From a virus, in UHGV virus genome UHGV-0312859: a stretch of DNA of 40,027 nt; one strand, written 5' to 3'. The translations under genes and the position numbers were made by a program. Shown here in pieces: positions 1 to 33,246 of this stretch (position 1 is the stretch's first letter; every line of letters starts with the position of its first letter). The notes below the pieces were generated by a model. That model saw only the letters and a list, made by a program, of their open reading frames with translations. It was not told where the DNA came from and ran no database searches.

Positions 1-24
1 CAAAATGGAAAGGAGACTATTAAC

Positions 25-669: not shown

Positions 670-688
670 GAAAGGATAAGGTGATAAA

Positions 689-1672: not shown

Positions 1673-1686
1673 TCGGAGGTGGTCTT

Positions 1687-2073: not shown

Positions 2074-2077
2074 GACT

Positions 2078-2416: not shown

Positions 2417-2796
2417 TGCAGGTAAAGTCAACTATAAAGCTGAACATGCCCCGTATCAGCCAGCTGACCCGTGCAGCAGTAGTTGCTTTGAAGCAGACGG
2501 CGGAAGCGCTGCATACGGAAGTGGTACAGGCACAGGTCATGCCGTTTGATACTGGCAACCTGCAGAATGAAAGCACCTTCGTGGACACCAGTGAAGCTTC
2601 TAACGGAAAAGTAAGCCTGGTATCCAGCACGCCATATGCAAGGCGGCTGTATTATCATCCGGAATATCAGTTCCAGAAGTATGAAAATCCTTTTGCAGGC
2701 GGTAAATGGTTTGAGCCATGGCTTCCGGGAGGTGTCAGCTCCGGTTTTTGCAGGGAAGCCTTTAAGAAGTTTTATAAAAAGGCGGGTGGCGTATGA
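2416..2796 (+). CDS. HK97 gp10-like neck / tail-completion protein
   Basis: Motif MPFDTGNLQ typical of HK97 gp10-like proteins. RBS GGAGGTG before ATG 2416 (internal Met of the listed ORF). Confidence 0.5.
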   Translation: MQVKSTIKLNMPRISQLTRAAVVALKQTAEALHTEVVQAQVMPFDTGNLQNESTFVDTSEASNGKVSLVSSTPYARRLYYHPEYQFQKYENPFAGGKWFEPWLPGGVSSGFCREAFKKFYKKAGGV

Positions 2797-3200
2797 TGCT
2801 GCGGTTAACGGACATACAGGATTGGATCATTTCTCTTGGAATTGCAGAAGAGAGCCATGTTTATATCGGCAAACTGGATAATAAACAGCAGAAATCCATA
2901 GGTATTTATAACCGAAGTGGATCCGGACCACCCAATATTGCTTTAGGTGGCCTGGAATACACTACCTATGATACAAAGCAGCTCTCTCTTCTGGTCCATT
3001 GGAACAGGGACAAACCGGAAAGTGAAGAAGCTGCTTATCAACTATTTGAGAAACTTAGAAGCATATCCAGTCTGGACATAGGAGATACCCACATTAATTA
3101 TCTTCGTTTAATGGTTCCTGAACCCCAGGACGTAGGAACGGATGATAATGGGGTATATGAATATGTGATCTGGCTGGATCTTATCTATCAGAGAAAGTGA
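2793..3200 (+). CDS. tail terminator / tail completion protein (putative)
   Basis: Synteny between the gp10-like gene and the major tail gene. Confidence 0.35.
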   Translation: MMLRLTDIQDWIISLGIAEESHVYIGKLDNKQQKSIGIYNRSGSGPPNIALGGLEYTTYDTKQLSLLVHWNRDKPESEEAAYQLFEKLRSISSLDIGDTHINYLRLMVPEPQDVGTDDNGVYEYVIWLDLIYQRK

Positions 3201-3210
3201 GGAATGTGTA

Positions 3211-3666
3211 ATGAGTGAAGTAGGAGGAAAAGTATATCCTGTACACAATAACGTGTTTAAATTTGGTACAAAGGGTATGGACAGCGTGGACGGCGATATG
3301 GTAATGCCTGCGGATCTGGAGAACTTTGCGCCAACCATTGACGGTACCACAGAAGAATGGTATGCCATGGACGCAGAAGGCTGGGCCAAATCTGCTATGA
3401 CTGGCAAAAAACTCAGCTTTGCTTTTAAGGGAAAGCGTTCCGTAGGTGATGCCGGAAATGATTATATCGCAGGCCTTGCATGGAAATTTGGCCAGGATGT
3501 AATGACCAAGTTTGAGTGGACCATGACATCCGGGGCTAAGCTGGCTTGTGATGTAGTAGTAAATGTGACTACCCCAGGAGGCGGTGATACAACGAATATC
3601 GATGCCCTGGAGTTTGAGGTTACCTGTTATGGAAAACCAACCTATACACCGGTAGTGGCAGCGTAA
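3211..3666 (+). CDS. major tail (tube) protein
   Basis: 151 aa. Directly upstream of chaperone ORFs and the tape measure. RBS AGGAGGAAAAG. Confidence 0.55.
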   Translation: MSEVGGKVYPVHNNVFKFGTKGMDSVDGDMVMPADLENFAPTIDGTTEEWYAMDAEGWAKSAMTGKKLSFAFKGKRSVGDAGNDYIAGLAWKFGQDVMTKFEWTMTSGAKLACDVVVNVTTPGGGDTTNIDALEFEVTCYGKPTYTPVVAA

Positions 3667-3682
3667 AAGGAGACAATGAGCA

Positions 3683-3982
3683 ATGGCTAAAGTAGTAGAT
3701 ATTACAGATAAGCTTATATTTGATGGGAATCCATGCCTGATGATCAATGGAGAAAAACTGGAGGTAAATGCAGATGCTCCTACCATGATGAAAGTAATTA
3801 ATGTTACAAGAAATGGTGGAACTTCAGAAGAAAATATGAATGAATTATACGAACTGGTATTTCCAGAAAAATCCAGAAAGGTAATTGATTCGTTGAAACT
3901 GCTGGTTCCAGATTGGATGACTGTCATTCAGGAGGCCATAAAGTTGATCACAGGAGATATCACAGGCCAGGGAGAGCGCTGA
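3683..3982 (+). CDS. tail assembly chaperone (gpG-like)
   Basis: About 100 aa, between tail tube and tape measure. The downstream reading frame is open from 3948, overlapping its 3' end. Confidence 0.45.
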   Translation: MAKVVDITDKLIFDGNPCLMINGEKLEVNADAPTMMKVINVTRNGGTSEENMNELYELVFPEKSRKVIDSLKLLVPDWMTVIQEAIKLITGDITGQGER

Positions 3983-4031
3983 CCCGTACTACGACCTGTT
4001 TGAAGACTGGGACCTGATCATTTCCAGTTTC

Positions 4032-4316
4032 ATGACGCAGTACGGGTTGCGTATAAGGACGAAAGAGTTTGAAACGGTCAGCTGGGATGAGTTCCGTTCC
4101 CTGCTGGCCGGACTTGGACCGGAAACTCCCCTGGGCCGGGTGGTAGCGATACGTTCTGAAACAGATGATAATGTGATCAAACATTTTACCACTGATCAGC
4201 GAAGGATCCATGACAGCTGGCGTAAACATCAGATGGAGCAGATGACTCCGGAGGCTTATGACAGGGAAATGGAAGGTCTGGAAAGGATGTTCGCTGCATT
4301 ATGCGGAGGTGGTTGA
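4032..4316 (+). CDS. tail assembly chaperone partner ORF (gpT-like?)
   Basis: No SD before ATG 4032. Frame open from 3948 and overlaps the upstream ORF by 35 nt in the +1 frame. Confidence 0.35.
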   Translation: MTQYGLRIRTKEFETVSWDEFRSLLAGLGPETPLGRVVAIRSETDDNVIKHFTTDQRRIHDSWRKHQMEQMTPEAYDREMEGLERMFAALCGGG

Positions 4317-4464
4317 AATTGAAAAAGTAAAGCATGAAAAAGTCCGGTGCCCGTATTGCGGGCATCCGGTCAATGCCATGAAGTCAGAAGATGCCAAATG
4401 CAAGGGCATCTTTTTTAAATGCAAAAATAAGGAATGCAGGAAAATATTTGAGTTAAAGATCTAA
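4258..4464 (+). CDS. small C4 zinc-ribbon protein
   Basis: CPYCG...CKNKEC pair of CxxC motifs. Overlaps the preceding ORF and sits just before the tape measure gene. Confidence 0.3.
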   Translation: MTGKWKVWKGCSLHYAEVVEIEKVKHEKVRCPYCGHPVNAMKSEDAKCKGIFFKCKNKECRKIFELKI

Positions 4465-4503
4465 GACGCTGTGCCGATGTGCCTGTCTTAACGAAAAGGG
4501 CAG

Positions 4504-7500
4504 GTGATATATATGGCAGCAGACAGCGTAGGCCAGATCGGGCTTGATCTGGTAGTAAATAAAAATGAGTTTGACAGTCAGATGCTGGGGATACAGAATC
4601 TGGCAAAAAAAGCTGGCAAAGCACTTGCAGCTGCTTTTGCAGTCAAAAAAGTATTTGACTTTGGAAAGTCCTGTATAGAATTAGGCTCTGATCTGGCAGA
4701 AGTCCAGAACGTAGTTGATGTTACATTTTCCCAGATGAGCAAACAGGTAGATAAGTTTGCCCAGAATGCAGCCACTCAGTTTGGATTGTCTGAGACCATG
4801 GCAAAGCGGTTTACCGGTACTTTTGGAGCTATGGCAAAGGCATTTGGCTTCAGTGAGAAAGCTGCATATGACATGTCCACAACTCTTACTGGTCTTGCCG
4901 GAGATGTGGCATCTTTCTACAACATCAGTCAGGATGAGGCATACACGAAGTTAAAGTCTGTATTCACTGGTGAAACAGAAAGCCTGAAAGACCTGGGCAT
5001 TGTTATGACCCAGACGGCTCTTGACAGCTATGCTATGGCAAATGGCTTCGGAAAGACTACAGCAAAGATGTCGGAAATGGAAAAGGTTGCCCTGCGGTAT
5101 AAGTTTGTACAGGATCAGCTGACAACGGCAGCAGGTGACTTTTCCAGGACATCCACTGGCTGGGCGAACCAGGTCCGTATCTTACAGCTGCAGTTTGACA
5201 GCTTAAAGGCAACCATAGGACAGGGGCTTATAGCTGCATTATCCCCGGTCATCCAGGTGATCAACGCAGTCATTGGTAAAATACTCAGCCTGGCGAATGC
5301 ATTTAAAGCTTTTTTTGCCTTGATGTCTGGTGGTAAAGATTCAGGAGCATCCGCAACTGCAGCTGGTATGGAAGCTGTAGCTGTCGCAGCAGATAAAGCT
5401 GGAACGGCTGCTTCCGGTGCTGGGAATGCTGCAAAGAAAGCTGCTAAGGATATCAAAACGGCTACCACTGGTATTGATGAGCTTAATATCTTAAACCCGG
5501 ATAGTGGTTCAGATAGCGGAAGCGGATCTGGCGGTAGTGGAGCAGGCGGCTACAATGCAGATGACTTTGATATGGGAACACTTCCGGAACAGGAAGATAT
5601 AGTCAGTGGTAAGCTGCGGAAGATAGCTGACCTGCTGAACCAGTTAAAAGATTCTTTTACAAGTGGTTTTTGGGATGCTTTTGGCGACACATCTGTATTT
5701 GATTCGATCCAAAGCAGCATCCAGTCCATAAAAGACAGCCTTGGGAATATTTTTACTGATTCTGATGTGCAGACAGCGGCTTTAGGTTTTGCCAATACAC
5801 TGGCCCAGTCCTTAGGACAAGTTACAGGTTCTGTAGCAAGTATCGGTGCAACGATCGCAGATAACCTTCTGGGCGGTATTAGCAGGTACCTGGAACAGAA
5901 TAAAGGCCGCATTAAAGACTATCTGGTCCAGATGTTTAATATTGGCGGTGAGATTGCGACATTAGTTGGAAATTTCACAAGTTCCATTGCGGGGATCTTT
6001 ACTGTATTTCGCAGTGACTCAGCGAAACAGATCACAGCTGATATAATAGGTATTTTCAGTAGTTCCTTTATGGGAGTTACAAAATTAGGCAGTAAATTTG
6101 TCCGGGATCTGATCCAGGTTATAACAAAGCCTATAACCGATAATGCTGGTCAGATCAAAGAACGGATACAGGGGCTATTAGACGAACTGCAGCCTATATT
6201 TGATAAGCTGAAAGAATTAATTGATAAGATATGGGATGGCCTGAATACAGCTTATGATACTGTTGCAAAGCCAGTATTTGATGCATTTACAGAAGCGATA
6301 TCCTCAGTTGTGGACTGGATAACAGAAACTCAGACACGCTTTGACGGAGCTATTGGAGTTGTTGCTGCTTTCTTTGGGGCATGGGAAGTTGTAAAACTTG
6401 GTGAATTCATCATTAATGCTGGTGGCGTCGTATCAATGCTTTCTGGAATGGTAGCTGGTTTTGTAGCAAATGCGGCTGCTATTGCAACACATACAGCAGC
6501 GCTTATAGCAGATAAGCTGGAGACAGCCGCTATTGTTGCTATGTATGCCAAAGATTTTGTAGTAAACCTGGCGCAAGGAACAGCGGCCCTGGTGCAGCAG
6601 GCGGCCCAGTTTGTTATCAATACTGCAGCAAAGATAGCAGATACCGCAGCTCAGATTGCCATGACTGCGGCTACAGTGGCATGGAATGCTGTATGTGCGA
6701 TCGCAACAACGGTTACTACTGCTTTAGGTGCGGCCATTGCATTCCTTACCAGTCCGATCGGTTTTGTTATCATTGCTATAACAGCGCTGATTACGGCTGG
6801 AGTTCTTCTGTATCAGCATTGGGATGAAGTCAAAAAGTTTGCAGCCGAAGCCTGGGAAGCAATTAAAAAGACAATAAATAATGCCATCGATGCGGTTAAG
6901 GTGTTCATATCCAGTACGCTTGAACTGATAAAAACAGCCTGGGAAACTAAGTGGAACCAGATCAAGGCATTTGCATCTAACCTATGGAATGCGATCAAAG
7001 CTCTTGCGACATCCATTTTCGAAGCGATCAGAGACAAGCTTTCCGAGATCTGGGACAGTGTAAAAAGCACCATTGAAGAAAAATGGAACGCTATCAAGGA
7101 TTGGTTTGAAGATATCTGGAAAAAGATCAAAGAAGTGTTTAAACCGGATGCAATGATCGAGGTCGGAAAGAGCATCATGAACAAACTCTGGGACGGCTTA
7201 AAATCCGTCTGGGGTTCCATTGCCGGATGGCTGCAAGGCTGTGCTGATTTTGTCGGCGGTGTTTGGGACGGTATTGTGGAAGGCGCGAAGAGTATTTTCA
7301 AGAGTGCTAAAGAAGACGCCGAAGATGATGAGGCAGATGACAGTGATGACTGGGACTATGGTACCAATTCGCCGGTATCCGGTCATGCTTCTGGTGGATT
7401 CCCTAAATCTGGTCAGATGTTCGTAGCCCGTGAGGACGGTATCCCGGAGATGGTTGGAAGCTGGGGAGGCCGTGCAGCAGTTGCAAATAACCAGCAGATC

Positions 7501-7857
7501 ACCCAGGGTATTACCCAGGCAGTCCAGAATGGCATGCGTTCCTGTATGGCTCCGCTTGTATCCATGATGTCAAGTGTAGCAGGTAATGCAGCACCACCGC
7601 TGGCAGTAACAGGCCGTGCAGCTGTTTATGAAAATGATGATGACAGGCTTATGAACCTGGTAAGCCGTGCTGTGGCATTATCACAGAATGGTACCGGTAT
7701 GGATGATTCACGTATCGCGCGCATCCAGGAACTCTTAGAGCGCATTGTGGACCTGATCGAAGCCATGGACCTGACAGTGAGCATTGATATCCGTGATGTA
7801 AAGAAGAAACTGACGGATCTGGAAAAGAGAAGCGGTTACACGTTAAGAACAACGTAA
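4504..7857 (+). CDS. tail tape measure protein
   Basis: 1117 aa with a long helical A/G-rich region. Shows periodic Trp-containing repeats (AWETKWNQIK, IWDSVKS, KWNAIKDWFEDIWKKI) and a C-terminal acidic stretch. Confidence 0.9.
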   Translation: MIYMAADSVGQIGLDLVVNKNEFDSQMLGIQNLAKKAGKALAAAFAVKKVFDFGKSCIELGSDLAEVQNVVDVTFSQMSKQVDKFAQNAATQFGLSETMAKRFTGTFGAMAKAFGFSEKAAYDMSTTLTGLAGDVASFYNISQDEAYTKLKSVFTGETESLKDLGIVMTQTALDSYAMANGFGKTTAKMSEMEKVALRYKFVQDQLTTAAGDFSRTSTGWANQVRILQLQFDSLKATIGQGLIAALSPVIQVINAVIGKILSLANAFKAFFALMSGGKDSGASATAAGMEAVAVAADKAGTAASGAGNAAKKAAKDIKTATTGIDELNILNPDSGSDSGSGSGGSGAGGYNADDFDMGTLPEQEDIVSGKLRKIADLLNQLKDSFTSGFWDAFGDTSVFDSIQSSIQSIKDSLGNIFTDSDVQTAALGFANTLAQSLGQVTGSVASIGATIADNLLGGISRYLEQNKGRIKDYLVQMFNIGGEIATLVGNFTSSIAGIFTVFRSDSAKQITADIIGIFSSSFMGVTKLGSKFVRDLIQVITKPITDNAGQIKERIQGLLDELQPIFDKLKELIDKIWDGLNTAYDTVAKPVFDAFTEAISSVVDWITETQTRFDGAIGVVAAFFGAWEVVKLGEFIINAGGVVSMLSGMVAGFVANAAAIATHTAALIADKLETAAIVAMYAKDFVVNLAQGTAALVQQAAQFVINTAAKIADTAAQIAMTAATVAWNAVCAIATTVTTALGAAIAFLTSPIGFVIIAITALITAGVLLYQHWDEVKKFAAEAWEAIKKTINNAIDAVKVFISSTLELIKTAWETKWNQIKAFASNLWNAIKALATSIFEAIRDKLSEIWDSVKSTIEEKWNAIKDWFEDIWKKIKEVFKPDAMIEVGKSIMNKLWDGLKSVWGSIAGWLQGCADFVGGVWDGIVEGAKSIFKSAKEDAEDDEADDSDDWDYGTNSPVSGHASGGFPKSGQMFVAREDGIPEMVGSWGGRAAVANNQQITQGITQAVQNGMRSCMAPLVSMMSSVAGNAAPPLAVTGRAAVYENDDDRLMNLVSRAVALSQNGTGMDDSRIARIQELLERIVDLIEAMDLTVSIDIRDVKKKLTDLEKRSGYTLRTT

Positions 7858-7871
7858 GGAGGCGGCAACAA

Positions 7872-8249
7872 ATGGCAGTAATAACGATCAATGGCCGGGA
7901 GTTCCCGGCTCCTGATGTAGGTGGTAATCTTGTGGTCGCAACCAATGTCAGCTCCGGAAAAAACGCAAATGGCGAATTTGTTGGACAGAAGGTTGGCAGG
8001 GATCAATATAAATTCGATGCATTGCAGTGGAAATTCCTGGATGCAGCTACCTGGTCAGCTATGTTGCAGGAATTTGACAAATTTGTAGTGACCGCCCGGA
8101 TCCCGGATATGGTAAACAATCGTTTCCAGACAATCCGCATGTATCCGGGAAACCGTACAGCCACGCCGGTGGAATTTAATGGATCAGGGCTTCCTACAAA
8201 GTACCGGGACTGTAAGGTCAACATCATAGACTGCGGGGTGATAGAATAA
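7872..8249 (+). CDS. tail component (distal-tail-like, short)
   Basis: First ORF after the tape measure. Only 125 aa. Confidence 0.3.
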   Translation: MAVITINGREFPAPDVGGNLVVATNVSSGKNANGEFVGQKVGRDQYKFDALQWKFLDAATWSAMLQEFDKFVVTARIPDMVNNRFQTIRMYPGNRTATPVEFNGSGLPTKYRDCKVNIIDCGVIE

Positions 8250-10480
8250 TGCAAGCTGTAAGCAATGCATATAAACAGGAAATGAAAAAGCAGTATCGTG
8301 ATCATTCCTATATGCGCGTCAGTATTGGCCTGATCAATCAGGAGGCCCAGGCATCTGCTTATATACCTGATCAGGAGAAATATGCTTATTATAGCAATCT
8401 GACCTGGCCACTCAACAACTATGAGGTTTCGGAACTGTATGAAACCTGTGACCAGGATTACAGTACCGTAGATGGGAGTATGTATTTTTTGCCAAGGGAA
8501 CGTCAGGATGCAGTCCTTAACCAGGGGATCGTTACAGATGATCTTTTAGGTGAGGTTGAGATCCGTTTTCCGGTACAGCACGATATAAAAGGTCTCACAG
8601 TAGAATTTGGCAAAGCGTATCCTGTGGATTTTTCCATTGTATCAGATGAACATACGGTTGAGATCACAGGGAATGATACAGGGCATTTTGTGACGGAAGA
8701 GATCTTTCCTGGTGCAACATTTCTCCGGTTTGTGCCAAAGGATATGGTCAATGGGCAAAGCCGGCTGCGGATCCACCGTATCACGATGGGGATCGGTATC
8801 TACTTTGATAACCAGAAGATATTGTCAGCCACAAAGAAAGAGCGAATCAGTCCTGTTATGGAAGATCTGCCATCCATTGATCTGAACATAACCATTGATA
8901 ATAAAAACCGTGCATATGACATTGAAAATGAAGAGAGTACGGTAAATTTCCTGGAAAATGGCCAGGAGATCAATGTGATTTACGGTCAGGAGCTGGATGA
9001 TGGAAATGTGGAGTGGATGCCCGGTACCACGGTATATCTGCGGGAATGGTCTGCAGATGATGAAGAAATGAGTTTTACTGCTACAGACCGTTTTGATGGC
9101 ATGGATGAAACTTACCGCCGCGGAAAATATTATCCTGATGGAATAAGCCTGTATGATCTTGCAGTTGATGTCTTTGGCGATGCCGGAATAGACAGCCGTA
9201 CCTATTGGCTTGATAATTATCTAAAAGATGTTATGGTTTATAATCCAATGCCAGTAGTATCCCATAAAGAAGCACTGCAGCTGATCGCAAATGCCGGACG
9301 CTGTATTCTTTACCAGGACCGGAATGGAAATATATTTATGAAGTCCAGTTTTATACCGGACATGCAGGCAAGTTCAGCAAATGAAACTTACTTTTCTAAT
9401 ACGGCTTCAGTACTGGATGCAACAGAAAAAAGCACTTATGCCACACCGGAAAAGGATCATACAGAAGCATCAGCTGTACAGTTCTTTTTGCCATATCAGG
9501 ATAAAAACTATCTGGATGTGGGATATGTATCGGAAGCAGTAGCGGATGAAGATGGGACATTTACAGAAGATCCATTGGTGACTATCGTTCTGGAAGCGCG
9601 GTACAAGTGCTTTGGCCTTACATTGGAATTTGGAGGCAATCATCCGTCTGGTATGGTATTCCGTTCCTATTTGGGAGAGGAACTGGTGGAAGAGTATAAA
9701 ATATCTTCTCTTTCTGAAGTTACTGTGGTCAATCATGAATTCCCGGAATTTGATAAGCTGCAGCTTGAATTTTTAAAGGGAGTACCGTTTAACAGGGTAA
9801 ACCTGAAACAGATCACATTTGGGGACAGTACTGATTATGAACTGTCTTACGGCAAGGAGCTTACTAAGACGCCAAAGGGTACACAGTTATCAAGAGTCAG
9901 AGAGTTGCAGATGACCAGGACAATTTATACATCAGGGACTGAAAAGAGACAATTAGTCAGGGAGGCTGTCCCGGCAGACGAAACCAGGCATACGTTTTAT
10001 CTTAATGCAGCGGCTTATGATTATGAAATAGATGCAGCTGGTGGCACAAATGTCCAGATCATTGATAGCAGCGCATATTACGTTACGGTAGAGGTTGACG
10101 GTGGAGCAGATACGGAAGTGACCATAAATGGATATGAATACAATGTAACACAGGCGCTTGTGACCAGACAGTTAAATCCCACAGGAACTGTTGAAACGTG
10201 GGAAAATCCGCTTGTATCTACGTCAAATCATGCAGCAGATCTTGCTGAATGGATCGGAGATTATCTGCGTTCTGACCGGGAATATGATCTGGAATATCGT
10301 GGAGAACCGCGTATTGATGCAAATGATATTGTATTCCTGGAAAATAAATACGTTCCGGATCTGCTGTTGCGGATATATGAACATACATTGAAGTTTAATG
10401 GGGCATTGTCCGGCACCATAAAGGCAAGGAGGGATATGAGCAATGTGGCAACAGCCAAAAACAGACTGGCAGGCCAGTGA
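8249..10480 (+). CDS. tail-associated minor structural protein (Tal-like)
   Basis: 743 aa, second ORF after the tape measure. Stop and start share ATAATG. Confidence 0.45.
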   Translation: MQAVSNAYKQEMKKQYRDHSYMRVSIGLINQEAQASAYIPDQEKYAYYSNLTWPLNNYEVSELYETCDQDYSTVDGSMYFLPRERQDAVLNQGIVTDDLLGEVEIRFPVQHDIKGLTVEFGKAYPVDFSIVSDEHTVEITGNDTGHFVTEEIFPGATFLRFVPKDMVNGQSRLRIHRITMGIGIYFDNQKILSATKKERISPVMEDLPSIDLNITIDNKNRAYDIENEESTVNFLENGQEINVIYGQELDDGNVEWMPGTTVYLREWSADDEEMSFTATDRFDGMDETYRRGKYYPDGISLYDLAVDVFGDAGIDSRTYWLDNYLKDVMVYNPMPVVSHKEALQLIANAGRCILYQDRNGNIFMKSSFIPDMQASSANETYFSNTASVLDATEKSTYATPEKDHTEASAVQFFLPYQDKNYLDVGYVSEAVADEDGTFTEDPLVTIVLEARYKCFGLTLEFGGNHPSGMVFRSYLGEELVEEYKISSLSEVTVVNHEFPEFDKLQLEFLKGVPFNRVNLKQITFGDSTDYELSYGKELTKTPKGTQLSRVRELQMTRTIYTSGTEKRQLVREAVPADETRHTFYLNAAAYDYEIDAAGGTNVQIIDSSAYYVTVEVDGGADTEVTINGYEYNVTQALVTRQLNPTGTVETWENPLVSTSNHAADLAEWIGDYLRSDREYDLEYRGEPRIDANDIVFLENKYVPDLLLRIYEHTLKFNGALSGTIKARRDMSNVATAKNRLAGQ

Positions 10481-10844
10481 TTATTTTAATATCAAGGATT
10501 ATAACCGCATAAAAGGAAATCTGAATGAGATCCGGCGGCAGGCGCTTATCCTGTGGCCGGATTTTACGTTTGAAGATATGGGCGGGGATAAAGCCTATAC
10601 GGATTATGGCTTTTATGCAGATGAGATCAACCGGTTTGAAGCCAATGTGGAACATATCTGTGTAGGTGTGTTCCCTTTTAAGGTAGGTGAACGGAAGACG
10701 TTTTACGAGAACCAGCTTTTTATTGACTGGAAGGAACTGAACCGTATCGAAGAGGCCTGCAGACTGATGTACAGTAATATCCAGAGCCGGATCACAGGGA
10801 GGCGTAAGCTTGCATTTACCCTAAACGGAGGAGAGATATGTTAA
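10443..10844 (+). CDS. hypothetical tail/baseplate protein
   Basis: RBS AGGAGGGA 9 nt before ATG. Overlaps the upstream gene end. Confidence 0.4.
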   Translation: MWQQPKTDWQASDYFNIKDYNRIKGNLNEIRRQALILWPDFTFEDMGGDKAYTDYGFYADEINRFEANVEHICVGVFPFKVGERKTFYENQLFIDWKELNRIEEACRLMYSNIQSRITGRRKLAFTLNGGEIC

Positions 10845-11287
10845 AAACGGATTATAAAGATGCCATGTATGATGGCGCACGGAAATATAAGATCACATCG
10901 AATGCTGATGGGACTTCCGGTATTACAGATGAAACAGTCTATACGCAGGAAGGGGATCCCTTTGGGGCAAACGATATCAATTCCACAAACAAAGCTATCA
11001 ACCGTATAAATGGTGAACCTGCTAATGTAACACTTACAGCAAGCGGCTGGACGGGAGATGCAGCCCCATATAGCCAGACAGTTGAGGTAGAAGGTGTTAC
11101 AGCAGAAGATAATCCCATCTTTGTAAGTCTGCTGGAAGATGGGGCTCCTGCAGAAACCCAGAAGGCATATATGAAAGCTTTTGGTATCATCGCTTCTGGT
11201 ACGGGGACAACGGCAGCCGGCAGCGTGACTTTTAAGGTTTACAAAAAGCCGGAAACTGACATTATGATCGGGCTAAAAGGAGTGTAA
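10838..11287 (+). CDS. hypothetical structural protein
   Basis: RBS GGAGGAGA before ATG. Lies in the tail fibre region. Confidence 0.4.
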   Translation: MLKTDYKDAMYDGARKYKITSNADGTSGITDETVYTQEGDPFGANDINSTNKAINRINGEPANVTLTASGWTGDAAPYSQTVEVEGVTAEDNPIFVSLLEDGAPAETQKAYMKAFGIIASGTGTTAAGSVTFKVYKKPETDIMIGLKGV

Positions 11288-11289
11288 CA

Positions 11290-12618
11290 ATGGGAAGAGT
11301 ATTAATGACTGGCGGTGGTGGAGGTGGTGGTTCTTCTGATGACTGCACTGCTACCGCTAATGATGTTTTAAAAGGAAAAACTGCTGTTTATAACGGATCT
11401 GGTGACGAACCGCAAGAGGGTACATTAGAGTTAACTGGAGATGCAGCTGATGGATATGTTTATAGCGGAAAGACCTATTATAATACAGATGCTCGTACCA
11501 AACGTACTGGCGCAATGACAGTAGGAAGCATCTTAAATTTTAGTGCGGCAGCATACAGTGGACGGCAGGTTCTGTTAAAATGGCAGAATCCTTATGCTGC
11601 GACAGGTAAGCCGTTCGGAGGTGTATTTATTAATTATTCCACCAGTGGTTATCCGGGAACCGGCGGCACAAGAATCTATACTGGGTATGGAAACAACAAC
11701 GCATCTGGTGGCTGGTCTCAAGTAGTTGTGACACTGCCAAATCTGAATACTACTTATTATTTCAGCTGTATTGCTTATTGTCCATGCAGTGTTTGTGATA
11801 TCCTGGGGAATACAATGAATGCCTCCTGTAGGACTTCTGGAAACATCGACAAAACCATAACATGGAGTCAAAACTATACCGTTCCAGCCGGATATAATTA
11901 TGTCGATATCTTCTGTGTTGGTGGCGGTGGTGCTGGAAGAGGTGGATGGAGCGATAGTGGAGGATATCAACATACTGGAGGTGGCGGAGGTGGAGGCTAC
12001 ACATCGACAGCACTAAACATAAATGTATCGGGAGGACAGGTATTGAATTGCAGTGTTGGCGCCGGTGGTGCAGTGCTTAATAGATCTGACGTTTCAACGG
12101 GCGATAGATCTGGATCAGGCGGGACATCGAGCGTAACACGAAACGGAAGTGTTTTATGCTCAGCAGGCGGTGGTCAAGGTGGCGATGCATGGCGTTATGG
12201 CGGTAATGGCGGTTCTGGCGGTGGTGCTCCTGGACATGGTAGCGATGTAGAGAGCCATAATGGTGGAACTAACGGCGGAAATGGGGTCAATGGAACAGGA
12301 AATCAACAAAAAGGCGGAACTGGTCAGGGACGCACAACAAGACCGTGGGGCAGTAATACAGGAACGGTTTACTCTGGCGGCGGAGGCGGCGGAGGAGCGG
12401 CTAGTAATAAGGGCTATCATGGAGTTGGTGGTAATTATGGCGGCGGTAATGGTGGAATGTATAAATATGGTGACCCTGTTACAGTATTAACCGCTACAGC
12501 AGGACAAGCAAACTCTGGTGGAGGCGGTGGCGGAGGACACGGAAATTACTATTATGGAGGCGGAACTGCCGTTGGTGGAGCAGGCGGATCAGGCATCATT
12601 TTACTCCGTCTCCATTAA
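11290..12618 (+). CDS. glycine-rich tail fibre / receptor-binding candidate
   Basis: Multiple Gly runs (GGGGGGG...), resembling the glycine-rich domain of phage fibre proteins. Contains a Cys cluster CIAYCPCSVC. Sits at the tail-fibre position. Confidence 0.55.
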   Translation: MGRVLMTGGGGGGGSSDDCTATANDVLKGKTAVYNGSGDEPQEGTLELTGDAADGYVYSGKTYYNTDARTKRTGAMTVGSILNFSAAAYSGRQVLLKWQNPYAATGKPFGGVFINYSTSGYPGTGGTRIYTGYGNNNASGGWSQVVVTLPNLNTTYYFSCIAYCPCSVCDILGNTMNASCRTSGNIDKTITWSQNYTVPAGYNYVDIFCVGGGGAGRGGWSDSGGYQHTGGGGGGGYTSTALNINVSGGQVLNCSVGAGGAVLNRSDVSTGDRSGSGGTSSVTRNGSVLCSAGGGQGGDAWRYGGNGGSGGGAPGHGSDVESHNGGTNGGNGVNGTGNQQKGGTGQGRTTRPWGSNTGTVYSGGGGGGGAASNKGYHGVGGNYGGGNGGMYKYGDPVTVLTATAGQANSGGGGGGGHGNYYYGGGTAVGGAGGSGIILLRLH

Positions 12619-12632
12619 AGAAAGGATTCAAA

Positions 12633-13061
12633 ATGATTAGAGAATTTGCAAAGCCATACATCATGCTTGATGAGGATAGTAAAATTTACAATATTGAAAT
12701 GCATACAAGCTATGAAGAAGCTAACCAGTTTGCCAGAGCAGTATATGGAGATGGCGCAGCAGCCGATGAATACCGTTATCTTGTGCAGATTGGCGATATT
12801 AAAAAAGATGGCGTTTACTACAATGTTGGTGAAAACGGAGAGTTGACTGAAGCGGAATATATTCCTTCAGATGAAGAAAAAATCGGTCAGTTAGAAACAT
12901 CTAATCGTGAGTTGTCAGATCAGCTCACCGAAGCACAGTTAGCCCTTACCGAGCAGTATGAAGCTAATTTAGCACTGGAAGATGAAGTCACTAACACCCA
13001 GTTAGCATTGACTGAACTTTATGAAGCAAACCAGACCACTACAACCACAAAGGAGGCTTAA
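12633..13061 (+). CDS. hypothetical coiled-coil protein (XkdW position)
   Basis: C-terminal heptad-like repeats (QLALTEQYEANLALEDEV / QLALTELYEAN). Located after the fibre gene. Confidence 0.35.
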   Translation: MIREFAKPYIMLDEDSKIYNIEMHTSYEEANQFARAVYGDGAAADEYRYLVQIGDIKKDGVYYNVGENGELTEAEYIPSDEEKIGQLETSNRELSDQLTEAQLALTEQYEANLALEDEVTNTQLALTELYEANQTTTTTKEA

Positions 13062-13063
13062 TC

Positions 13064-13177
13064 ATGGCAAGCTACATGGCAACAGTATATGCGGACCTGA
13101 TCCGCAAGGGAAAGAAAAAAATCGAAGAGGTACCAGAGAAAATCAGAGTGGAAGTCGAGGCATTATTAAATGCTTAG
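13064..13177 (+). CDS. XkdX-like small protein (37 aa)
   Basis: Strong RBS AAGGAGG 8 nt upstream. Motif LIRKGKK...VPEKI. Paralog of the next ORF. Confidence 0.35.
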   Translation: MASYMATVYADLIRKGKKKIEEVPEKIRVEVEALLNA

Positions 13178-13217
13178 GTTGCTGCTCTTTTTATTACTGA
13201 GGAAGGAGGTGGAGACT

Positions 13218-13349
13218 ATGGCAATCATTTATGCAACCCTTATTGTTAAGGGAAAGAAAACCTACGCACAGGTACCAGAAAAGATCAAGCCACAGGTAAA
13301 GCAGGTTCTGATCGACCTGGAGTGCGAAGATCTGATCACGGAGGAGTAA
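13218..13349 (+). CDS. XkdX-like small protein paralog (43 aa)
   Basis: RBS GGAGGTGGAG. Motif LIVKGKKT..QVPEKI shared with the previous small ORF. Confidence 0.35.
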   Translation: MAIIYATLIVKGKKTYAQVPEKIKPQVKQVLIDLECEDLITEE

Positions 13350-13352
13350 GTC

Positions 13353-13694
13353 ATGGAATCAATCATGCAGTACATATCTGTGCATTGGGTTTCATGGGTG
13401 TTTGGGATCATCTCTGTATTGCTTTCCGGAGCATATCATAAATTATCCAAACAGTTAAAGGCAGAACGTGCCAGAACAAATGCTATTAACGCAGGAGTTC
13501 TGGCACTCCTCCATGACCGTCTTTACCAGGCATGTACATTTTATTTAAAAAGGAAATATTGTACCTTGGAAGACAGAGACAATCTGGAGTATATGTTCAG
13601 GCCATATAAAGCGTTGGGTGGAAATGGAACCGGAGAAGATCTTTATAACAGATGTCTGGCTTTACCATATGAGCCGGCAGAACAGGAGGTATAG
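13353..13694 (+). CDS. membrane protein, lysis-cassette associated
   Basis: N-terminal TM helix (WVSWVFGIISVLL). Located immediately before the holin. Confidence 0.4.
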   Translation: MESIMQYISVHWVSWVFGIISVLLSGAYHKLSKQLKAERARTNAINAGVLALLHDRLYQACTFYLKRKYCTLEDRDNLEYMFRPYKALGGNGTGEDLYNRCLALPYEPAEQEV

Positions 13695-13696
13695 AT

Positions 13697-13960
13697 ATGG
13701 ATTTTGGAATTGGAAGTGTAACAGCGATCACAGCAATCTGTTACCTGGGCGGCATGGCCTGCAAGGCAACTACTAAGGTCAAGGATGAGGTTATCCCGGT
13801 AGTATGCGGAGTGACCGGTGGTATCCTGGGAGTAGCAGGTATGTACCTTATGCCGGAGTTTCCAGCAACAGATGTGATCAACGCTGCAGCTATTGGCATT
13901 GTATCCGGCTTGGCTGCAACTGGAGCGCACCAGGTTATTAAACAGGTTGGAAAGATGTAA
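13697..13960 (+). CDS. holin
   Basis: 87 aa with 2-3 predicted TM helices, Gly/Ala-rich hydrophobic segments and a charged C-terminus. Lies upstream of the endolysin. Confidence 0.55.
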   Translation: MDFGIGSVTAITAICYLGGMACKATTKVKDEVIPVVCGVTGGILGVAGMYLMPEFPATDVINAAAIGIVSGLAATGAHQVIKQVGKM

Positions 13961-13973
13961 AAGGAGGTGATCC

Positions 13974-14027
13974 ATGCATCTCCCGCGGCAGCCCGGGTTA
14001 CGGCTGCCTTTTGCGACGTCGCAATAA
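13974..14027 (+). CDS. 17-aa leader-like ORF
   Basis: Strong RBS AAGGAGGTG 4 nt before ATG. The ORF spans a hairpin and the 14-bp palindrome. Could be non-coding. Confidence 0.2.
   Translation: MHLPRQPGLRLPFATSQ
13987..14013 (+). terminator. hairpin GGCAGCC-8nt-GGCTGCC followed by TTTTG
   Basis: 7-bp perfect stem with an 8-nt loop and a short T-run. Located downstream of the holin. Confidence 0.35.
14011..14024. repeat. 14-bp perfect palindrome TTGCGACGTCGCAA (copy 1)
   Basis: Exact second copy at 39741-39754. Confidence 0.8.
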
Positions 14028-14107
14028 AACAGTAGTATAAACCACACTCATATGTTATAATGCCAATGTTACCGCCTCCGACACTGGTGACAGGAAGGAG
14101 GGCATCC

Positions 14108-14197
14108 ATGATGGAAATATTATTATCTCTTATTGTTTCCATTGCGGCAGGTGTGATTAGCCATCTCATTTGCAAATGGCTGGATGGAAACAAATAG
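14108..14197 (+). CDS. 29-aa hydrophobic peptide
   Basis: RBS AGGAAGGAGGG 7 nt before ATG. Single TM-like segment. Lies between holin and lysin. Confidence 0.3.
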   Translation: MMEILLSLIVSIAAGVISHLICKWLDGNK

Positions 14198-14243
14198 TCG
14201 GTAATCAGCCTATGGTTTAAGCCACCATATCAGAACGGAATAG

Positions 14244-14280
14244 AAAACCCCAGGGATCGCGACTCCCTGGGGTTTTCGTT
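14244..14280 (+). terminator. rho-independent terminator
   Basis: Stem CCCCAGGGA / TCCCTGGGG with loop tcgcgac, followed by TTTTCGTTTG. Confidence 0.7.
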
Positions 14281-14434
14281 TGTGCTATCCATGATGGATA
14301 ACTATTATCTCTTAGCCTACCGGCATTATATCATATGCAGAAATAGTTTTCAATATACTAAAAACGCGAAATTTGACCATGTGAAACATTGCATGGTCTT
14401 TTTCCATATTATTATAAAGAAAGGGGACAAACCT

Positions 14435-15366: not shown

Positions 15367-16839
15367 TTATGATGTATAGTAAAAGAACGTAAATACGCCA
15401 TTTTTTCGGTCAAAAACAATCTTCTTGAGTATCCTTCTTAGAGCATTTCCCTTATCTTCGTAACTAATTTCCGGATCAGAGATAAAATCATATACGGTAG
15501 AAATCCGCGCCAGGAGCTGCTGCTTACAGGTTGCCTGATCGGGAGCCGCAGGCTGTTCCTGATGCAGACGTTCCAGATCGGCCATGAGATTTTCACGTTC
15601 AGTCTGAAGCCGCTTTTTGTTGGTCCTATATTCTTCCAGTGTATCTACCTCATTTTCGTAGGCTTCTTTGATCCTGCGTTCTTTTGTTTCCAGATGGGAA
15701 AGCGCTTCCTGGATCAAAGTTTCTTCGCTTTGCAGAACAGCATTTGTGGGTGCTATGTATTCATAATTAATAACCTGCTCATCAATGGCAGTGCGGAGCG
15801 ACTTTAATACGGCCTGCTCTGCGATCCGGGCAGATACAGCGCAGGAGTCAGAATGAAAACCTTTGGAGTATTTCCAACACTGGAAGAAATCGGGGCGTTT
15901 CTTATTATCTTTTGTACGGTTAAAGCCAAGGCTTGCACCGCAGGTACCGCATTTTAGAAGCCCGGACAACCAATGTGCAGTGGATGATACTTCCCGGCGC
16001 TGCTTGGGGCGGTATTCCATTTTCACGCGTTCCTGGACAGACTCAAATACAGAGGTTACTGTAGGAAGAGTTTCATGGGAACCGGTGAACTGGATCCCGT
16101 TCCAGATCACCTGACCATTGTAAAATTGATTGGTCAGTATTCGGTAAATGGTCCGCCGTTCAAATGGGTTTCCACGGCGGGTAAGGTGCCCCTGCTGGTT
16201 TAAACTGCGGGCAATATAGGTCATGTCTTTCCCCTGGGAATATGCCTGGAAAATATATTCTACCAGGGGAGCTGCTTTAGGATCCAAAACGAAAGGCTTT
16301 CCTTCACCAACGGCCTGATAACCCAGACAGGGAGTTGCCTGATAACCGGATCGGAGGGCTTTTTCTGTCATTCCTCGAAGAACTTCACCGGAAAGGTTAT
16401 AAGAATAGTATTCATCAAACCATTCAATGATCGTCTCAATCAGTCGGCCAAACATACCGTCAGCAATGGGTTCGGATACGCTTTTGATCTCTACATTGCA
16501 TTTTTTGCGCAGAATGCCTTTGTAAAAGGTACTTTCTTCCTGATTGCGGGCGAACCGGGAAAATTTCCAGAGATACAGACGTTTAAATGGCGCCGGTTTC
16601 TGTGATTTAGCAATAGCGATCATGCGCTGAAATTCCGGCCGGTTACTGGCCTTTCTTCCGGAAATACCTTTATGTTCAACAAATACAAAGTCCGGCGGAA
16701 TAAAGAAACCGTCTTTTTTAGCTTCTTCCTGGATCACACGCAGCTGTGCGTCAGGTGATAATTCAGTCTGATCGTCTGTGCTTACACGGATATAGGCTGC
16801 TCCAATTTCTAATATCTGTTCAGTTTTTTTAGTGGTCAT
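15367..16839 (-). CDS. large serine recombinase (integrase)
   Basis: N-terminal resolvase motif AYIRVSTDDQ with catalytic Ser. Recombinase domain present. Zinc-ribbon CGTCGAS...C. C-terminal coiled-coil. 490 aa. Confidence 0.9.
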   Translation of the reverse strand: MTTKKTEQILEIGAAYIRVSTDDQTELSPDAQLRVIQEEAKKDGFFIPPDFVFVEHKGISGRKASNRPEFQRMIAIAKSQKPAPFKRLYLWKFSRFARNQEESTFYKGILRKKCNVEIKSVSEPIADGMFGRLIETIIEWFDEYYSYNLSGEVLRGMTEKALRSGYQATPCLGYQAVGEGKPFVLDPKAAPLVEYIFQAYSQGKDMTYIARSLNQQGHLTRRGNPFERRTIYRILTNQFYNGQVIWNGIQFTGSHETLPTVTSVFESVQERVKMEYRPKQRREVSSTAHWLSGLLKCGTCGASLGFNRTKDNKKRPDFFQCWKYSKGFHSDSCAVSARIAEQAVLKSLRTAIDEQVINYEYIAPTNAVLQSEETLIQEALSHLETKERRIKEAYENEVDTLEEYRTNKKRLQTERENLMADLERLHQEQPAAPDQATCKQQLLARISTVYDFISDPEISYEDKGNALRRILKKIVFDRKNGVFTFFYYTS

Positions 16840-16866
16840 AATATCATCTCCTGTTCTATAAGTACG

Positions 16867-16883
16867 AAAAATGGGTACAAAAA
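16867..16883 (-). repeat. 17-nt motif TTTTTGTACCCATTTTT (minus-strand copy)
   Basis: Exact reverse complement of 39311-39327. Follows a hairpin and sits about 25 nt upstream of the int start. Confidence 0.8.
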
Positions 16884-16884
16884 A

Positions 16885-16905
16885 GACGCCCCTTGCGCAG
16901 ACGTC
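16885..16905 (-). terminator. hairpin GACGTC-9nt-GGCGTC followed by a T-run (minus strand)
   Basis: Read on the minus strand: GACGTCTGCGCAAGGGGCGTC followed by TTTTTT. Confidence 0.4.
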
Positions 16906-17028
16906 CTGGAGATGATATAATTCAGGTGTTGAGACTGATTATATCTTTCCGGGGGTCCGGCAAGAGAAAATCTATGTAAGAGGCCGTTCCTGTTGGCGCA
17001 GGGGCGGTCTCTTGCGTTTTATGACATT

Positions 17029-17655
17029 TTAACCTATGTTTAATGTAACTGTTTGAGTATTTGGATTATTCCAGCTAAAAAGTTCTTTAATTTCTAATGT
17101 TAAAGGTGTTTTATCTTTGATACGATAAGCTTTTCCTACCTTTATGGTAGTTCCCTGAGTAACTTTCTTTGAATAATTATCTAATGCCTCATCACGATCA
17201 TCATATGAAAGCCATGTGGTATCACATTCAATACCATTTTGAAATGCTGTAATGTAATAATCAGCTAAGAGTGCGCTCTGGGATTCAGATTTTTTATTTG
17301 TAAAATCATAATACAGTATAACGCAGCTATAACCATCGTAGTCAGATGCAAGTTTCCAACCGGTATAAGTAATTTTGGCATCATCTGTATCAAAATTAAA
17401 AAGTGGGGTTATCAATGCACCACTGGCATCGACTTTCTGACCGTCAGGGGTAGTGGTGTTGGTTAAAATGTAACCGTTATTATCAAAATAATATTGTTTT
17501 CCATTTATTTCTTTCCAGGTGTTTGTTGGATAACTTCCATCATCATTTTGGTACCACCAACCAGAAGTATCCTGTTTCCATTCTCCTGCAAAGGAGGTCA
17601 TAGAAAGGACAGCAGATGCAACGCTGACAGCGAAAAATAACTTTACTTTCTTCAT
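17029..17655 (-). CDS. secreted protein with cell-wall-binding repeats and a C-terminal Ig-like domain (moron)
   Basis: Signal peptide MKKVKLFFAVSVASAVLSMTSFA. Repeats GWWYQNDDGSY / GKQYYFDNNGY of choline-binding type. Located between int and ImmA. Confidence 0.55.
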   Translation of the reverse strand: MKKVKLFFAVSVASAVLSMTSFAGEWKQDTSGWWYQNDDGSYPTNTWKEINGKQYYFDNNGYILTNTTTPDGQKVDASGALITPLFNFDTDDAKITYTGWKLASDYDGYSCVILYYDFTNKKSESQSALLADYYITAFQNGIECDTTWLSYDDRDEALDNYSKKVTQGTTIKVGKAYRIKDKTPLTLEIKELFSWNNPNTQTVTLNIG

Positions 17656-19041: not shown

Positions 19042-19133
19042 AGTGTGTCACCCCTTCTTTGATATATAATATCAAAAGTGAAACAAAAGTTCAATAGTAT
19101 CAGTGTAAAAAGTTTAAAAAATGAAACTTTGTA

Positions 19134-19162
19134 TTGACAAGAAAATAATGTCGATGTATAGT
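19134..19162 (+). promoter_or_regulatory. early rightward promoter (-35 TTGACA, 17 bp, -10 TATAGT)
   Basis: Consensus sigma-70-like hexamers. Drives the cro-like gene. Confidence 0.6.
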
Positions 19163-19169
19163 AACTATA

Positions 19170-19185
19170 GTTTCAAAATTGAAAC
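19170..19185. promoter_or_regulatory. operator: 16-bp perfect palindrome GTTTCAAAATTGAAAC (copy 1)
   Basis: Immediately downstream of the -10 of the early promoter. Confidence 0.6.
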
Positions 19186-19203
19186 TAATAGGAGGTGATT
19201 AAA

Positions 19204-19467
19204 ATGTGTGATAAAACGGTATTTGATTACAGCAAATTACGTGGAAGAATAGTAGAAATGTTTGGAACACAATGTAAATTTGCTGAAGCTAATGGAATAT
19301 CTGATAGATCAATGTCCTTGAAGTTAAATAATGGGATAGGACTGTCTCAGGATGAAATTTTGAGGTGGTGTAATCTTTTGGATATATGTACAGATGAAAT
19401 TCCGCTATATTTTTTTAAACAAAAAGTTTCAAAATTGAAACAGCATGAGGTACAAACAAATGAATGA
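19204..19467 (+). CDS. Cro-like / DUF739-type HTH regulator
   Basis: RBS GGAGGTG. Divergent from the repressor. Small HTH-like protein. Confidence 0.45.
   Translation: MCDKTVFDYSKLRGRIVEMFGTQCKFAEANGISDRSMSLKLNNGIGLSQDEILRWCNLLDICTDEIPLYFFKQKVSKLKQHEVQTNE
19426..19441. promoter_or_regulatory. operator copy 2: GTTTCAAAATTGAAAC
   Basis: Exact second copy, inside the 3' end of the cro-like gene. Lies 18 nt upstream of the antirepressor ATG. Confidence 0.5.
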
Positions 19468-20979: not shown

Positions 20980-21129
20980 GTGAAGGAATATGACGTGGTA
21001 AATCAGGTGGAAATTAATGGAAAAAGTATCTGTATGGAAAGCTTAACAGCAGAGCAGCGTAAGCAAATGGTTCAAAAATGGCAGGACCAGATCATGCAGC
21101 CTGTTGGGTACATAAGAAGGACCGCCTGA
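20980..21129 (+). CDS. small hypothetical protein (GTG start, 49 aa)
   Basis: RBS GAGAGGGGTGGTG. An alternative reading exists in the overlapping listed ORF 21078-21356. Confidence 0.25.
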   Translation: MKEYDVVNQVEINGKSICMESLTAEQRKQMVQKWQDQIMQPVGYIRRTA

Positions 21130-21170
21130 GAGCGGCCTTGGTGGACAAGCTTGGAAAGGAGAGAAAAACA

Positions 21171-21356
21171 ATGGCAAAGATCAAGAACTATGACGGTCAG
21201 ACAGACATGGAGCTGTCCTATGTGGCAGTGCAGGCAACCAGGCCTAAGAAGAAAGCTGTGGACTGGGTAGGTATCACGGAGACATTTATAGCCGGTGGCA
21301 TGTGGGTGATAGTCTTCATGATGCTTGGGGCTGCGCTTGCGGTCCAGGTGCTGTGA
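21171..21356 (+). CDS. small membrane protein (61 aa)
   Basis: RBS GGAAAGGAGAG before ATG 21171. C-terminal TM helix. Confidence 0.35.
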   Translation: MAKIKNYDGQTDMELSYVAVQATRPKKKAVDWVGITETFIAGGMWVIVFMMLGAALAVQVL

Positions 21357-31275: not shown

Positions 31276-31423
31276 AACATTAAAAGCTGTATATGTGTGG
31301 ATAGTGCTGGCTTTGATCTGGATGGGATTAGAGCTGTTACTGTACGGCGAAATCCAGCCGAGAACAGTAGATGATATTATGTGGTTTCTGTTTTTGCCAT
31401 TTATTTATATGGCGGTAAATTAA
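31268..31423 (+). CDS. small membrane protein (51 aa)
   Basis: Two hydrophobic segments. Overlaps the previous stop. Confidence 0.3.
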   Translation: MDRTLKAVYVWIVLALIWMGLELLLYGEIQPRTVDDIMWFLFLPFIYMAVN

Positions 31424-33203: not shown

Positions 33204-33206
33204 AGT

Positions 33207-33246
33207 TTGTTACGATTGTTACACATGTTACGAAACAAAGTGTTAT
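33207..33246 (+). repeat. direct repeats TGTTAC x3 at 9-bp spacing plus TGTTAT
   Basis: GTTAC copies at 33208, 33217 and 33226. GTTAT at 33242. Confidence 0.6.

Follow-up and report, generated by a model that had tools for sequence, protein, structure and literature searches.

A conserved 17-nucleotide tail on terminator-like hairpins ahead of integrase and other genes in temperate phages of gut Clostridia

Why does the viral genome UHGV-0312859, a stretch of 40,027 nucleotides (nt) that is referred to here as the window, carry the same 17 nt, TTTTTGTACCCATTTTT, once ahead of its integrase gene (int) and once more, inverted and 22 kb away, ahead of a phage lipoprotein gene? This genome is that of a temperate siphophage and is circularly permuted. 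Based on exact scans of this genome and of sequence collections, combined with folding and with comparisons to relatives of both genes, we tentatively propose, with slightly less than even confidence, that the 17-mer is the conserved 3' tail of intrinsic-terminator-like 'punctuation' elements, serving in addition as a selected single-stranded leader and as microhomology for exchange. The element is built from a GC hairpin of arbitrary sequence, a run of five to six T, the motif R-T-A-C-C-C-(A/T) (R, A or G) and an A/T run, followed after 0-50 nt by a ribosome-binding site (RBS) and a co-directional gene. Its carriers are temperate phages of gut Clostridia, mainly Lachnospiraceae. The two copies in the window are independent members of this family and not partners; both have the commonest variant, which accounts for their identity without any interaction.

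Within the window, an exact scan finds both copies at the positions and on the strands reported by the original prediction, which had been made from this DNA alone (Table 1), and a third copy is absent at up to two mismatches. The identity between the two is exactly 17 nt long, with differing flanking bases on either side. Each copy forms the U-tract side of a different GC hairpin, as had been noted, and is followed by an RBS; the predicted distance of 20 nt to the lipoprotein ATG (39348) is correct, whereas the one to the int ATG (16839-16837), given as about 25 nt, measures 27 nt. Two matches to this specific pattern were obtained in 0 of 100 shuffles. First-order Markov simulations yield 0.20 repeated 17-mers of any kind per window, with at least one in 12% of the simulations, and hence the window alone is only suggestive and the case rests on comparative data. 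We note separately a degenerate third hairpin followed by CTTCTTATGTACCCA at about 21105-21137 on the minus strand, inside or antisense to the open reading frame (ORF) 21078-21356, which may be chance.

The comparative data were obtained by exact scans of IMG/VR with the G form of the 17-mer, TTTTTGTACCCATTTTT, and with an A variant, TTTTTATACCCATTTTT, and the figures given for these scans are among the matches listed. Each form is present at no fewer than, i.e. at least, 120 loci. A hairpin that ends no more than a few nt from the T-run abuts the motif at 95 of 120 G-form sites (79%) and at 93 of 119 A-variant sites (78%), as compared to 11.5% for the remaining T5 runs of those loci, and a composition-matched control 17-mer, TTTTTACCGTCATTTTT, returns 39 IMG/VR matches of which none (0/39) has a hairpin. 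Chance is excluded by this family-level association, in support of the earlier view that a 17/17 match goes beyond the similarity of T-runs. In GTDB genomes, hairpin-type matches are mostly from gut Clostridia (Blautia, Dorea, Lachnospira, Jutongia, Acutalibacteraceae and others), while most matches from other phyla are without the hairpin and seem to be chance occurrences.

Among isolated phages, Anaerostipes phage AC844P1 and Dorea phage DO134P1 have variants of the element at both the int and the head positions. The Coprococcus phage NatCom_24345 (locus L391) carries the identical TTTTTTTGTACCCATTTTTAGGAGG twice in one late operon, at positions 20006 and 26718 of this locus; one copy precedes the portal gene and the other the tape-measure gene, and the two stand behind different hairpins. 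The exact 17-mer is also found in a host chromosome, ahead of a gene for a DUF2798 membrane protein of Blautia (L149, about 4296-4400 on the minus strand; L226; L236). In these three species representatives the leader has the order promoter-like TGGTATAAT/TGGTATAAA, hairpin, exact 17-mer and RBS, and the neighbours are ordinary host genes (RelA_SpoT-like, hydrolase, GH43). Away from the element GTACCCA is not enriched, with 54 other copies in 1.06 Mb versus about 129 expected by our estimate, and a Chi-like over-representation of this heptamer was rejected on these numbers. Literature searches for an 8-mer and a 12-mer returned primers or unrelated matches only, without mention of the motif, and the Heliusvirales paper mentions neither terminators nor motifs.

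The place of the 17-mer in the element is defined by its hairpins. Ahead of the exact tail there are 91 distinct hairpins, with a stem that ends 0-1 nt before the T-run and a 3' arm that shows a weak GGTGnT(A/T) bias only, and the start codon mostly follows the tail after 8-53 nt, with two outliers of 75 and 111 nt. The fixed junction together with the covarying hairpin and the U-tract places the 17-mer in the terminator, and a translation-geometry signal is disfavoured by the varying spacing to the start codon. The tail, UUUUUGUA, has six U in eight positions, i.e. the window copies have the GC stem-loop followed by at least five U in 8 nt that characterizes intrinsic terminators. At copy 1, AGGACGTCTGCGCAAGGGGCGTCTT (16907-16883, minus strand) is flagged as terminator-like by a terminator scan, and the abutting hairpin H3 displays compensatory changes in relatives, where the column pair 55/69 is GC in eight sequences and AU in eight, and the pair 58/66 is CG, UA or UG. 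At copy 2, the hairpin ATACCACCAGTCAGTAGGCCGGTGGTAT folds at -22 kcal/mol (z-score -5.3); it was missed by the simple scan because its loop has 12 nt.

Positional conservation in related phages, which had been suggested as a check of the motif, is observed for both genes. Loci were fetched via the integrase protein (99-37% identity) and via the lipoprotein. The integrase-anchored loci mostly have a hairpin, T5-6 and RTACCC at the homologous place, even as the hairpin, the spacer and the integrase lineage itself vary, and TTTTT(G/A)TACCC is kept in place among integrase relatives down to 40% identity; variants include ATACCCA, GTACCCT, ATACTCA, ATATCCA and GCACCCT. In lipoprotein relatives of at least 83% identity, the hairpin and tail are mostly kept, with the exact 17-mer, GTACTCA, GTGCCCA, ATACCCA or ATATCCA, and more distant relatives in other genome contexts are without the element. 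Most tail changes are transitions, according to our reading of the variant lists. Such variants are visible only in the gene-anchored samples; the flanks of the exact-match loci hold no near-variants at up to two mismatches in 1.06 Mb.

The genes behind the element are diverse. Clustering of the downstream proteins at 80% identity gives 51 clusters. Large serine recombinases account for 14 of these and tyrosine integrases for 7, the others including portal, capsid, tape-measure and Prp protease proteins, VG64 lipoproteins, Tad2-like, Abi_2, HTH_17, DUF6275 and DUF2798 proteins and a few host genes; anti-defence functions are among them. The presence of the element ahead of portal, tape-measure, capsid and Prp protease genes implies that a link to lysogeny-expressed genes, as expected by the original prediction from the two window copies, is not general. 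At sites other than int, a co-directional ORF usually ends just before the hairpin or inside its 5' arm, with a gap of at most 12 nt in 46% of 63 sites.

Homology between loci breaks at this position. In two integrase loci, L181 and L036, the block upstream of int in the window is shared through the 17-mer and diverges thereafter. L036 (10856-12079) keeps the DUF5067 gene, the small RNA (sRNA) block described below and H3, and a tyrosine integrase of 381 amino acids (aa) replaces the serine integrase directly after the 17-mer; L181 (3106-4679) keeps the sRNA block, H3 and the 17-mer, which are then followed by a different serine integrase of 508 aa. The hairpin and tail of copy 2 occur with different downstream genes in L004, L006, L101, L102 and L112. 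At the head site, L006 has no lipoprotein gene in the interval from the 17-mer to a palindrome, TTGCGACGTCGCAA, that follows this gene in the window, and L101, L004 and L043 have other genes in this interval. The absence in L006 and the exchanged integrases in L036 and L181 support the earlier suggestion of a moron-boundary cassette. Among locus pairs with at least 80% identity on either of the two sides, discordance across the element is seen in 53%, versus 2-5% at +60/+120 nt into the downstream gene, i.e. in this ungapped comparison homology ends at the element more often than nearby, and a second breakpoint zone is located just upstream of the hairpin. In relatives the palindrome directly follows the 17-mer, and small GC hairpins of its type, including the compensatory variants GTGCGACATCGCAC, GTTGCACCGGTGCAAC and TTGTGACATCACAA, are often found between the 17-mer and the RBS. 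The window phage encodes a Sak4-like annealase and a protein resembling single-stranded DNA-binding protein (SSB), which would fit recombination on short homology.

At int, the element is embedded in a larger arrangement. A conserved block of about 150 nt lies upstream of both serine and tyrosine integrases, and contains the bidirectional-looking terminator H1 and an inverted repeat whose right arm reads, on the opposite strand, as a near-consensus extended -10, TGATAYAAT, with a -35 of TTGCAA, TTGCCA or TTGCGC in the loop of H3. This predicted promoter of a divergent sRNA is near consensus in 52 distinct loci, and copy 1 is positioned at -61 to -45 relative to it. Homologous predicted divergent RNAs of 64-95 nt with two hairpins comprise 44 distinct sequences. 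Rfam 15, including int-alpA and Lacto-int, matched only a tRNA and SpF66 elsewhere when the whole window was searched at the gathering threshold, and gave only noise for 16780-17120 at E-values up to 10, i.e. no family for the sRNA unit; in a MAFFT alignment over all sRNA subfamilies, made for covariation, the terminator alone was alignable. On the int strand, the segment 16908-16918 pairs with the Shine-Dalgarno sequence (SD) and AUG of int (16841-16851) in a fold of -26.8 kcal/mol (z-score -3.7), with the left arm at 16938-16945 (minus strand) as the alternative partner of this anti-RBS arm, and copy 1 and H3 sit in the loop of the resulting helix. The pairing recurs with different arm sequences in other integrase lineages, where cognate arm pairs have a mean of -11.2 kcal/mol versus -8.7 kcal/mol for non-cognate ones and a mean as strong as the cognate one arises in 0 of 5000 permutations; in the lineage of the window itself the helix is 90% paired and no double changes are seen. 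A segment complementary to the recombinase SD/AUG is, in other words, conserved with compensatory change. It is plausible that the int leader functions as an antisense/occlusion switch for int, in which expression of the sRNA is predicted. The int-leader/sRNA architecture is an undescribed feature that follows known antisense/occlusion logic. As a separate observation, the RBS/start region of int (16837-16857) and positions 31361-31381 inside a small membrane ORF form a near-identical inverted pair of 21 nt (20/21), possibly by chance.

We propose that the punctuation elements operate as follows. The hairpin and U-tract would stop or attenuate transcription entering the next cistron; int would thereby be insulated against the repressor operon, and each accessory or module-leading gene against the genes that precede it. 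The tail would be kept single-stranded and under selection, most likely as the start of the downstream mRNA unit or for tuning of RNA polymerase at the terminator; as a start of the unit it may serve as a read-through leader, in processing, or for entry of the ribosome or a ribonuclease (RNase). Being nearly invariant, the tail could moreover act as microhomology for the swapping of integrase cassettes, morons and structural modules between phages. As proposed here, it would be a terminator/leader element of the intrinsic type whose conserved extension serves as a linker at module boundaries.

Several points weigh against this proposal. Termination, read-through and processing at the element are what we infer from sequence, and at the int site H3 is weak on its own (-11 kcal/mol, z-score -0.25), no better than shuffles. 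A strong terminator before portal or tape-measure genes would leave essential late genes short of transcription if read-through were inefficient, and simple insulation is hence not the whole story. The conservation of RTACCC and of the second T-run is left unaccounted for by punctuation, and neither a cis partner nor a known protein site nor an Rfam family was found to explain that of RTACCC. The junction test is ungapped and crude, its comparison points being +60/+120 nt and not other intergenic sites, and phage genomes often have breakpoints at gene boundaries in any case. A pseudoknot or other cis partner for GUACCCA was sought in the hairpin loop, the 5' flank and the adjacent sRNA, with nothing consistent by eye, and none of the operator, sigma and MazF-type consensus sequences known to us fits.

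Alternatively, the terminator may be conditional, with the RUACCCA tail recognised on the nascent RNA or RNA polymerase by a trans-acting factor, such as a host RNA-binding protein, an RNase or a phage antiterminator, and with regulated read-through; we consider this a possibility of some weight, though a doubtful one. The tail hardly varies between hosts or phage lineages and is both strand-specific and single-stranded, its variants are, as we read them, mostly transitions, and immediately behind it comes a small 5' hairpin or a strong SD, as expected for a new 5' end. The element is also found inside essential late operons, where read-through must occur, and the Blautia DUF2798 leader points to host machinery instead of a phage-specific protein. 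However, a candidate factor was not found, no protein is known to be common to all carrier phages, which were not compared systematically for one, the copies within one genome can differ (DO134P1, AC844P1), and the transition bias could be mutation bias. A less likely arrangement is a compact sigma-A promoter fused to the terminator, where the 3' arm of the hairpin and the T-run form an extended -10, TGnTATTTT, transcription starts at CCCA, and the tail provides the discriminator and the initial transcribed region. Copy 2 does read GGTGGTATTTTT / TGGTATTTT and nearly all integrase relatives (G)TATTTTTT, while of the 123 distinct contexts that make up the generalised-motif set, 38 have TGnTA at their end and 53 have TA; in addition, int is shielded from upstream transcription by the terminator H1 and the converging sRNA promoter, and therefore needs a proximal promoter. 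Conversely, the int copy reads GCGTCTTTTTT and the Coprococcus phage copies GTGCTTTTTTT, both without the A of the -10, the presence of TGnTA is uncorrelated with sites that are short of room for another promoter, a -35 is lacking, and the conservation of the second T-run is not explained. TGnTATTTT as a universal promoter feature was rejected on this comparison of contexts, as was, for its spacing, a promoter with TTGTAC as -35, which is spaced 10-14 nt from any -10.

Slightly less probable still, and restricted to the int loci, is that the two A-tracts of the complementary strand (AAAAATGGGTACAAAAA, -61 to -45) serve the divergent sRNA promoter as an UP-element or activator site. Their position relative to the predicted -35 and -10, the A-tract at -43 to -48 in alignment A3 and the near-consensus quality of the sRNA promoter across loci are compatible with this. 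But more than half of the contexts are without a divergent promoter, having instead a co-directional gene that ends just upstream, the orientation of the motif everywhere follows the downstream gene, and UP elements do not need a GGGTAC core. The original prediction also allowed for recombination sites; site-specific recombination at the inverted copies (as a 22-kb inversion or between att-like sites), or a mere chance match, appears very improbable to us. The inverted orientation, the serine recombinase gene beside one copy and the weakness of the within-window statistics alone would be in line with it. Nevertheless, the arms of T5-N7-T5 are direct and not inverted repeats, chimeric hairpin/downstream junctions are not seen among the listed contexts of relatives, and the motif also precedes tyrosine integrases, structural genes and other non-recombinase genes. 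About half of the integrase-relative contigs moreover end within about 100 nt of the int stop codon, which suggests an attP downstream of int, although IMG/VR may trim at gene ends; a chance match, in turn, is what the family-level data exclude.

The punctuation elements with their conserved tail thus remain our preferred, if tentative, explanation. A further-reaching version, to which we assign a low probability comparable to that of the conditional terminator, is that they constitute a class of 'addressed' terminators in gut Lachnospiraceae and their phages, with the invariant RUACCCA tail being read by RNA polymerase itself or a conserved host factor to set or switch read-through or mRNA processing at module boundaries, the tail also being the long-postulated linker in modular phage evolution and, at integrase genes, placed within an undescribed antisense-sRNA/anti-RBS switch common to serine and tyrosine integrases.

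Table 1 Features of the window at and around the two 17-mer copies.
Feature	Position	Strand	Remark
17-mer copy 1, TTTTTGTACCCATTTTT	16867-16883	-	U-tract and conserved tail; exact scan
17-mer copy 2, TTTTTGTACCCATTTTT	39311-39327	+	Exact scan
Hairpin H3, GGACGTCTGCGCAAGGGGCGTC	16884-16907	-	Abuts copy 1; terminator scan, fold, compensatory changes
Hairpin AAATACCACCAGTCAGTAGGCCGGTGGTATTT	39282-39313	+	Abuts copy 2; about 2 nt after stop codon of 52-aa ORF
Int translation initiation region, AGGAGATGATATTATG	16837-16853	-	Pairs with 16908-16922
Anti-RBS arm, AATTATATCATCTCC	16908-16922	-	Complement of sRNA extended -10
Predicted divergent sRNA unit	16893-17022	+	Between int and DUF5067 gene
Predicted sRNA -35, TTGCGC	16893-16898	+	In loop of H3
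Predicted sRNA extended -10, TGATATAAT	16913-16921	+	
Predicted sRNA of about 94 nt	about 16928-17021	+	Predicted transcription start near 16928; two hairpins
Terminator H1	16978-17013	+	Bidirectional-looking; T-run after
Head-to-tail genes	1-14000		
Palindrome, second copy	14010-14025		Upstream of lysis genes
Holin and endolysin genes	to 15229		
int, large serine integrase, 490 aa	15367-16839	-	Resolvase, Recombinase and Zn_ribbon domains
Genes for DUF5067/choline-binding protein, M78 protease and helix-turn-helix (HTH) repressor, then three operators		-	Same strand as int
Replication genes, extracytoplasmic function (ECF)-like sigma-family late regulator, terminase, portal, minor head protein			Beyond the operators
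Lipoprotein gene, 127 aa	39348-39731	+	Pfam Phage_VG64
Perfect palindrome, small hairpin ATTGCGACGTCGCAAA/TTGCGACGTCGCAA	39740-39755	+	After lipoprotein gene, just 5' of next RBS

The N-terminus of the lipoprotein is a lipoprotein signal peptide, MKKKILAFGVALSVMLGMVGC, and the protein has Phage_VG64 as its sole Pfam match and no match in NCBIfam. In view of the signal peptide, its PHROG 478 label, 'recombination directionality factor', looks unreliable, and a co-regulation of int with such a factor was rejected on these findings. BLAST against GenBank phages leaves the int region unmatched and gives weak matches only for the lipoprotein region. Elsewhere in the window, a palindromic operator-like sequence, AGTTTCAAAATTGAAAC, is present in three copies at 19111-19441, in the interval that separates the repressor gene from the early lytic genes. 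The stretch 33204-33260 contains GTTAC as three direct repeats and then GTTATAGT; it lies just 3' of the gene for the ECF-like late regulator of the sigma-70 family (32769-33203) and constitutes a candidate late promoter ahead of terS. Rfam furthermore matches a tRNA (46 bits) at 33499-33566 that is not called by ARAGORN, and the SpF66 sRNA at 14068-14288, overlapping the holin gene and its terminator.

Should the tail prove functional, some temperate phages that rank among the most abundant of the human gut would share a widespread cis-signal that is easy to recognise. Such a signal could be used for locating boundaries of transcription units and modules, insertion points of morons and integrase cassettes in genomes of uncultured phages, and would be a concrete and testable example of a conserved linker for phage module exchange. 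The int leader, with its divergent sRNA, terminator and anti-RBS arm, offers a testable model for low expression of prophage integrases, whatever the integrase type. Experiments are feasible, as isolated carriers and hosts exist (Anaerostipes caccae DA844 with AC844P1 and Dorea DA134 with DO134P1).

The element resembles intrinsic (Rho-independent) terminators and leader attenuators, in which a GC-rich hairpin followed by a U-tract stands after a gene or in a 5' leader and the hairpin sequence is free if pairing is kept. It differs from these in that about 12 further nt, RTACCC(A) and a second T/A run, are conserved across more than 90 unrelated hairpins, and in its position directly 5' of an RBS in strings of co-directional genes, essential late operons included. 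With nut-type antitermination sites (boxA and a boxB hairpin, or the hairpin before boxA in rrn leaders) it has in common a hairpin next to a conserved linear RNA motif; yet a boxA-like sequence is lacking, the hairpin is terminator-shaped with a U-tract, the motif is found at each terminator and not at the operon start, and there is no evidence of N, Q or Nus. Intercistronic processing sites, i.e. those of RNase III in T7 and of RNase Y in cggR-gapA and saePQRS, similarly combine a hairpin that would shield the upstream 3' end, a single-stranded AU-rich stretch with a G and then a small hairpin or strong SD that would shield a new 5' end, but the known RNase Y and RNase III sites have little conservation of primary sequence, and cleavage at the element described here is only a proposal. 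The surroundings of copy 1, as distinct from the 17-mer itself, are reminiscent of IS10 RNA-IN/RNA-OUT and of Rfam int-alpA and Lacto-int, with face-to-face promoters, a short structured divergent RNA and an anti-RBS segment that pairs with the SD/AUG of int; unlike in those systems, there is no Rfam match, the transcripts would overlap by only a few nt, and the unit is common to serine and tyrosine integrases. Finally, Botstein and Susskind reportedly proposed 'linker' or boundary sequences for modular exchange in lambdoid phages. The element agrees with such linkers in being a short conserved non-coding boundary sequence at which homology breaks and after which alternative cassettes (serine or tyrosine integrase, morons) follow, and departs from them in being coupled to a terminator hairpin, strand-specific and present in a host chromosomal leader as well, which argues for an expression function first, with recombination as a by-product.
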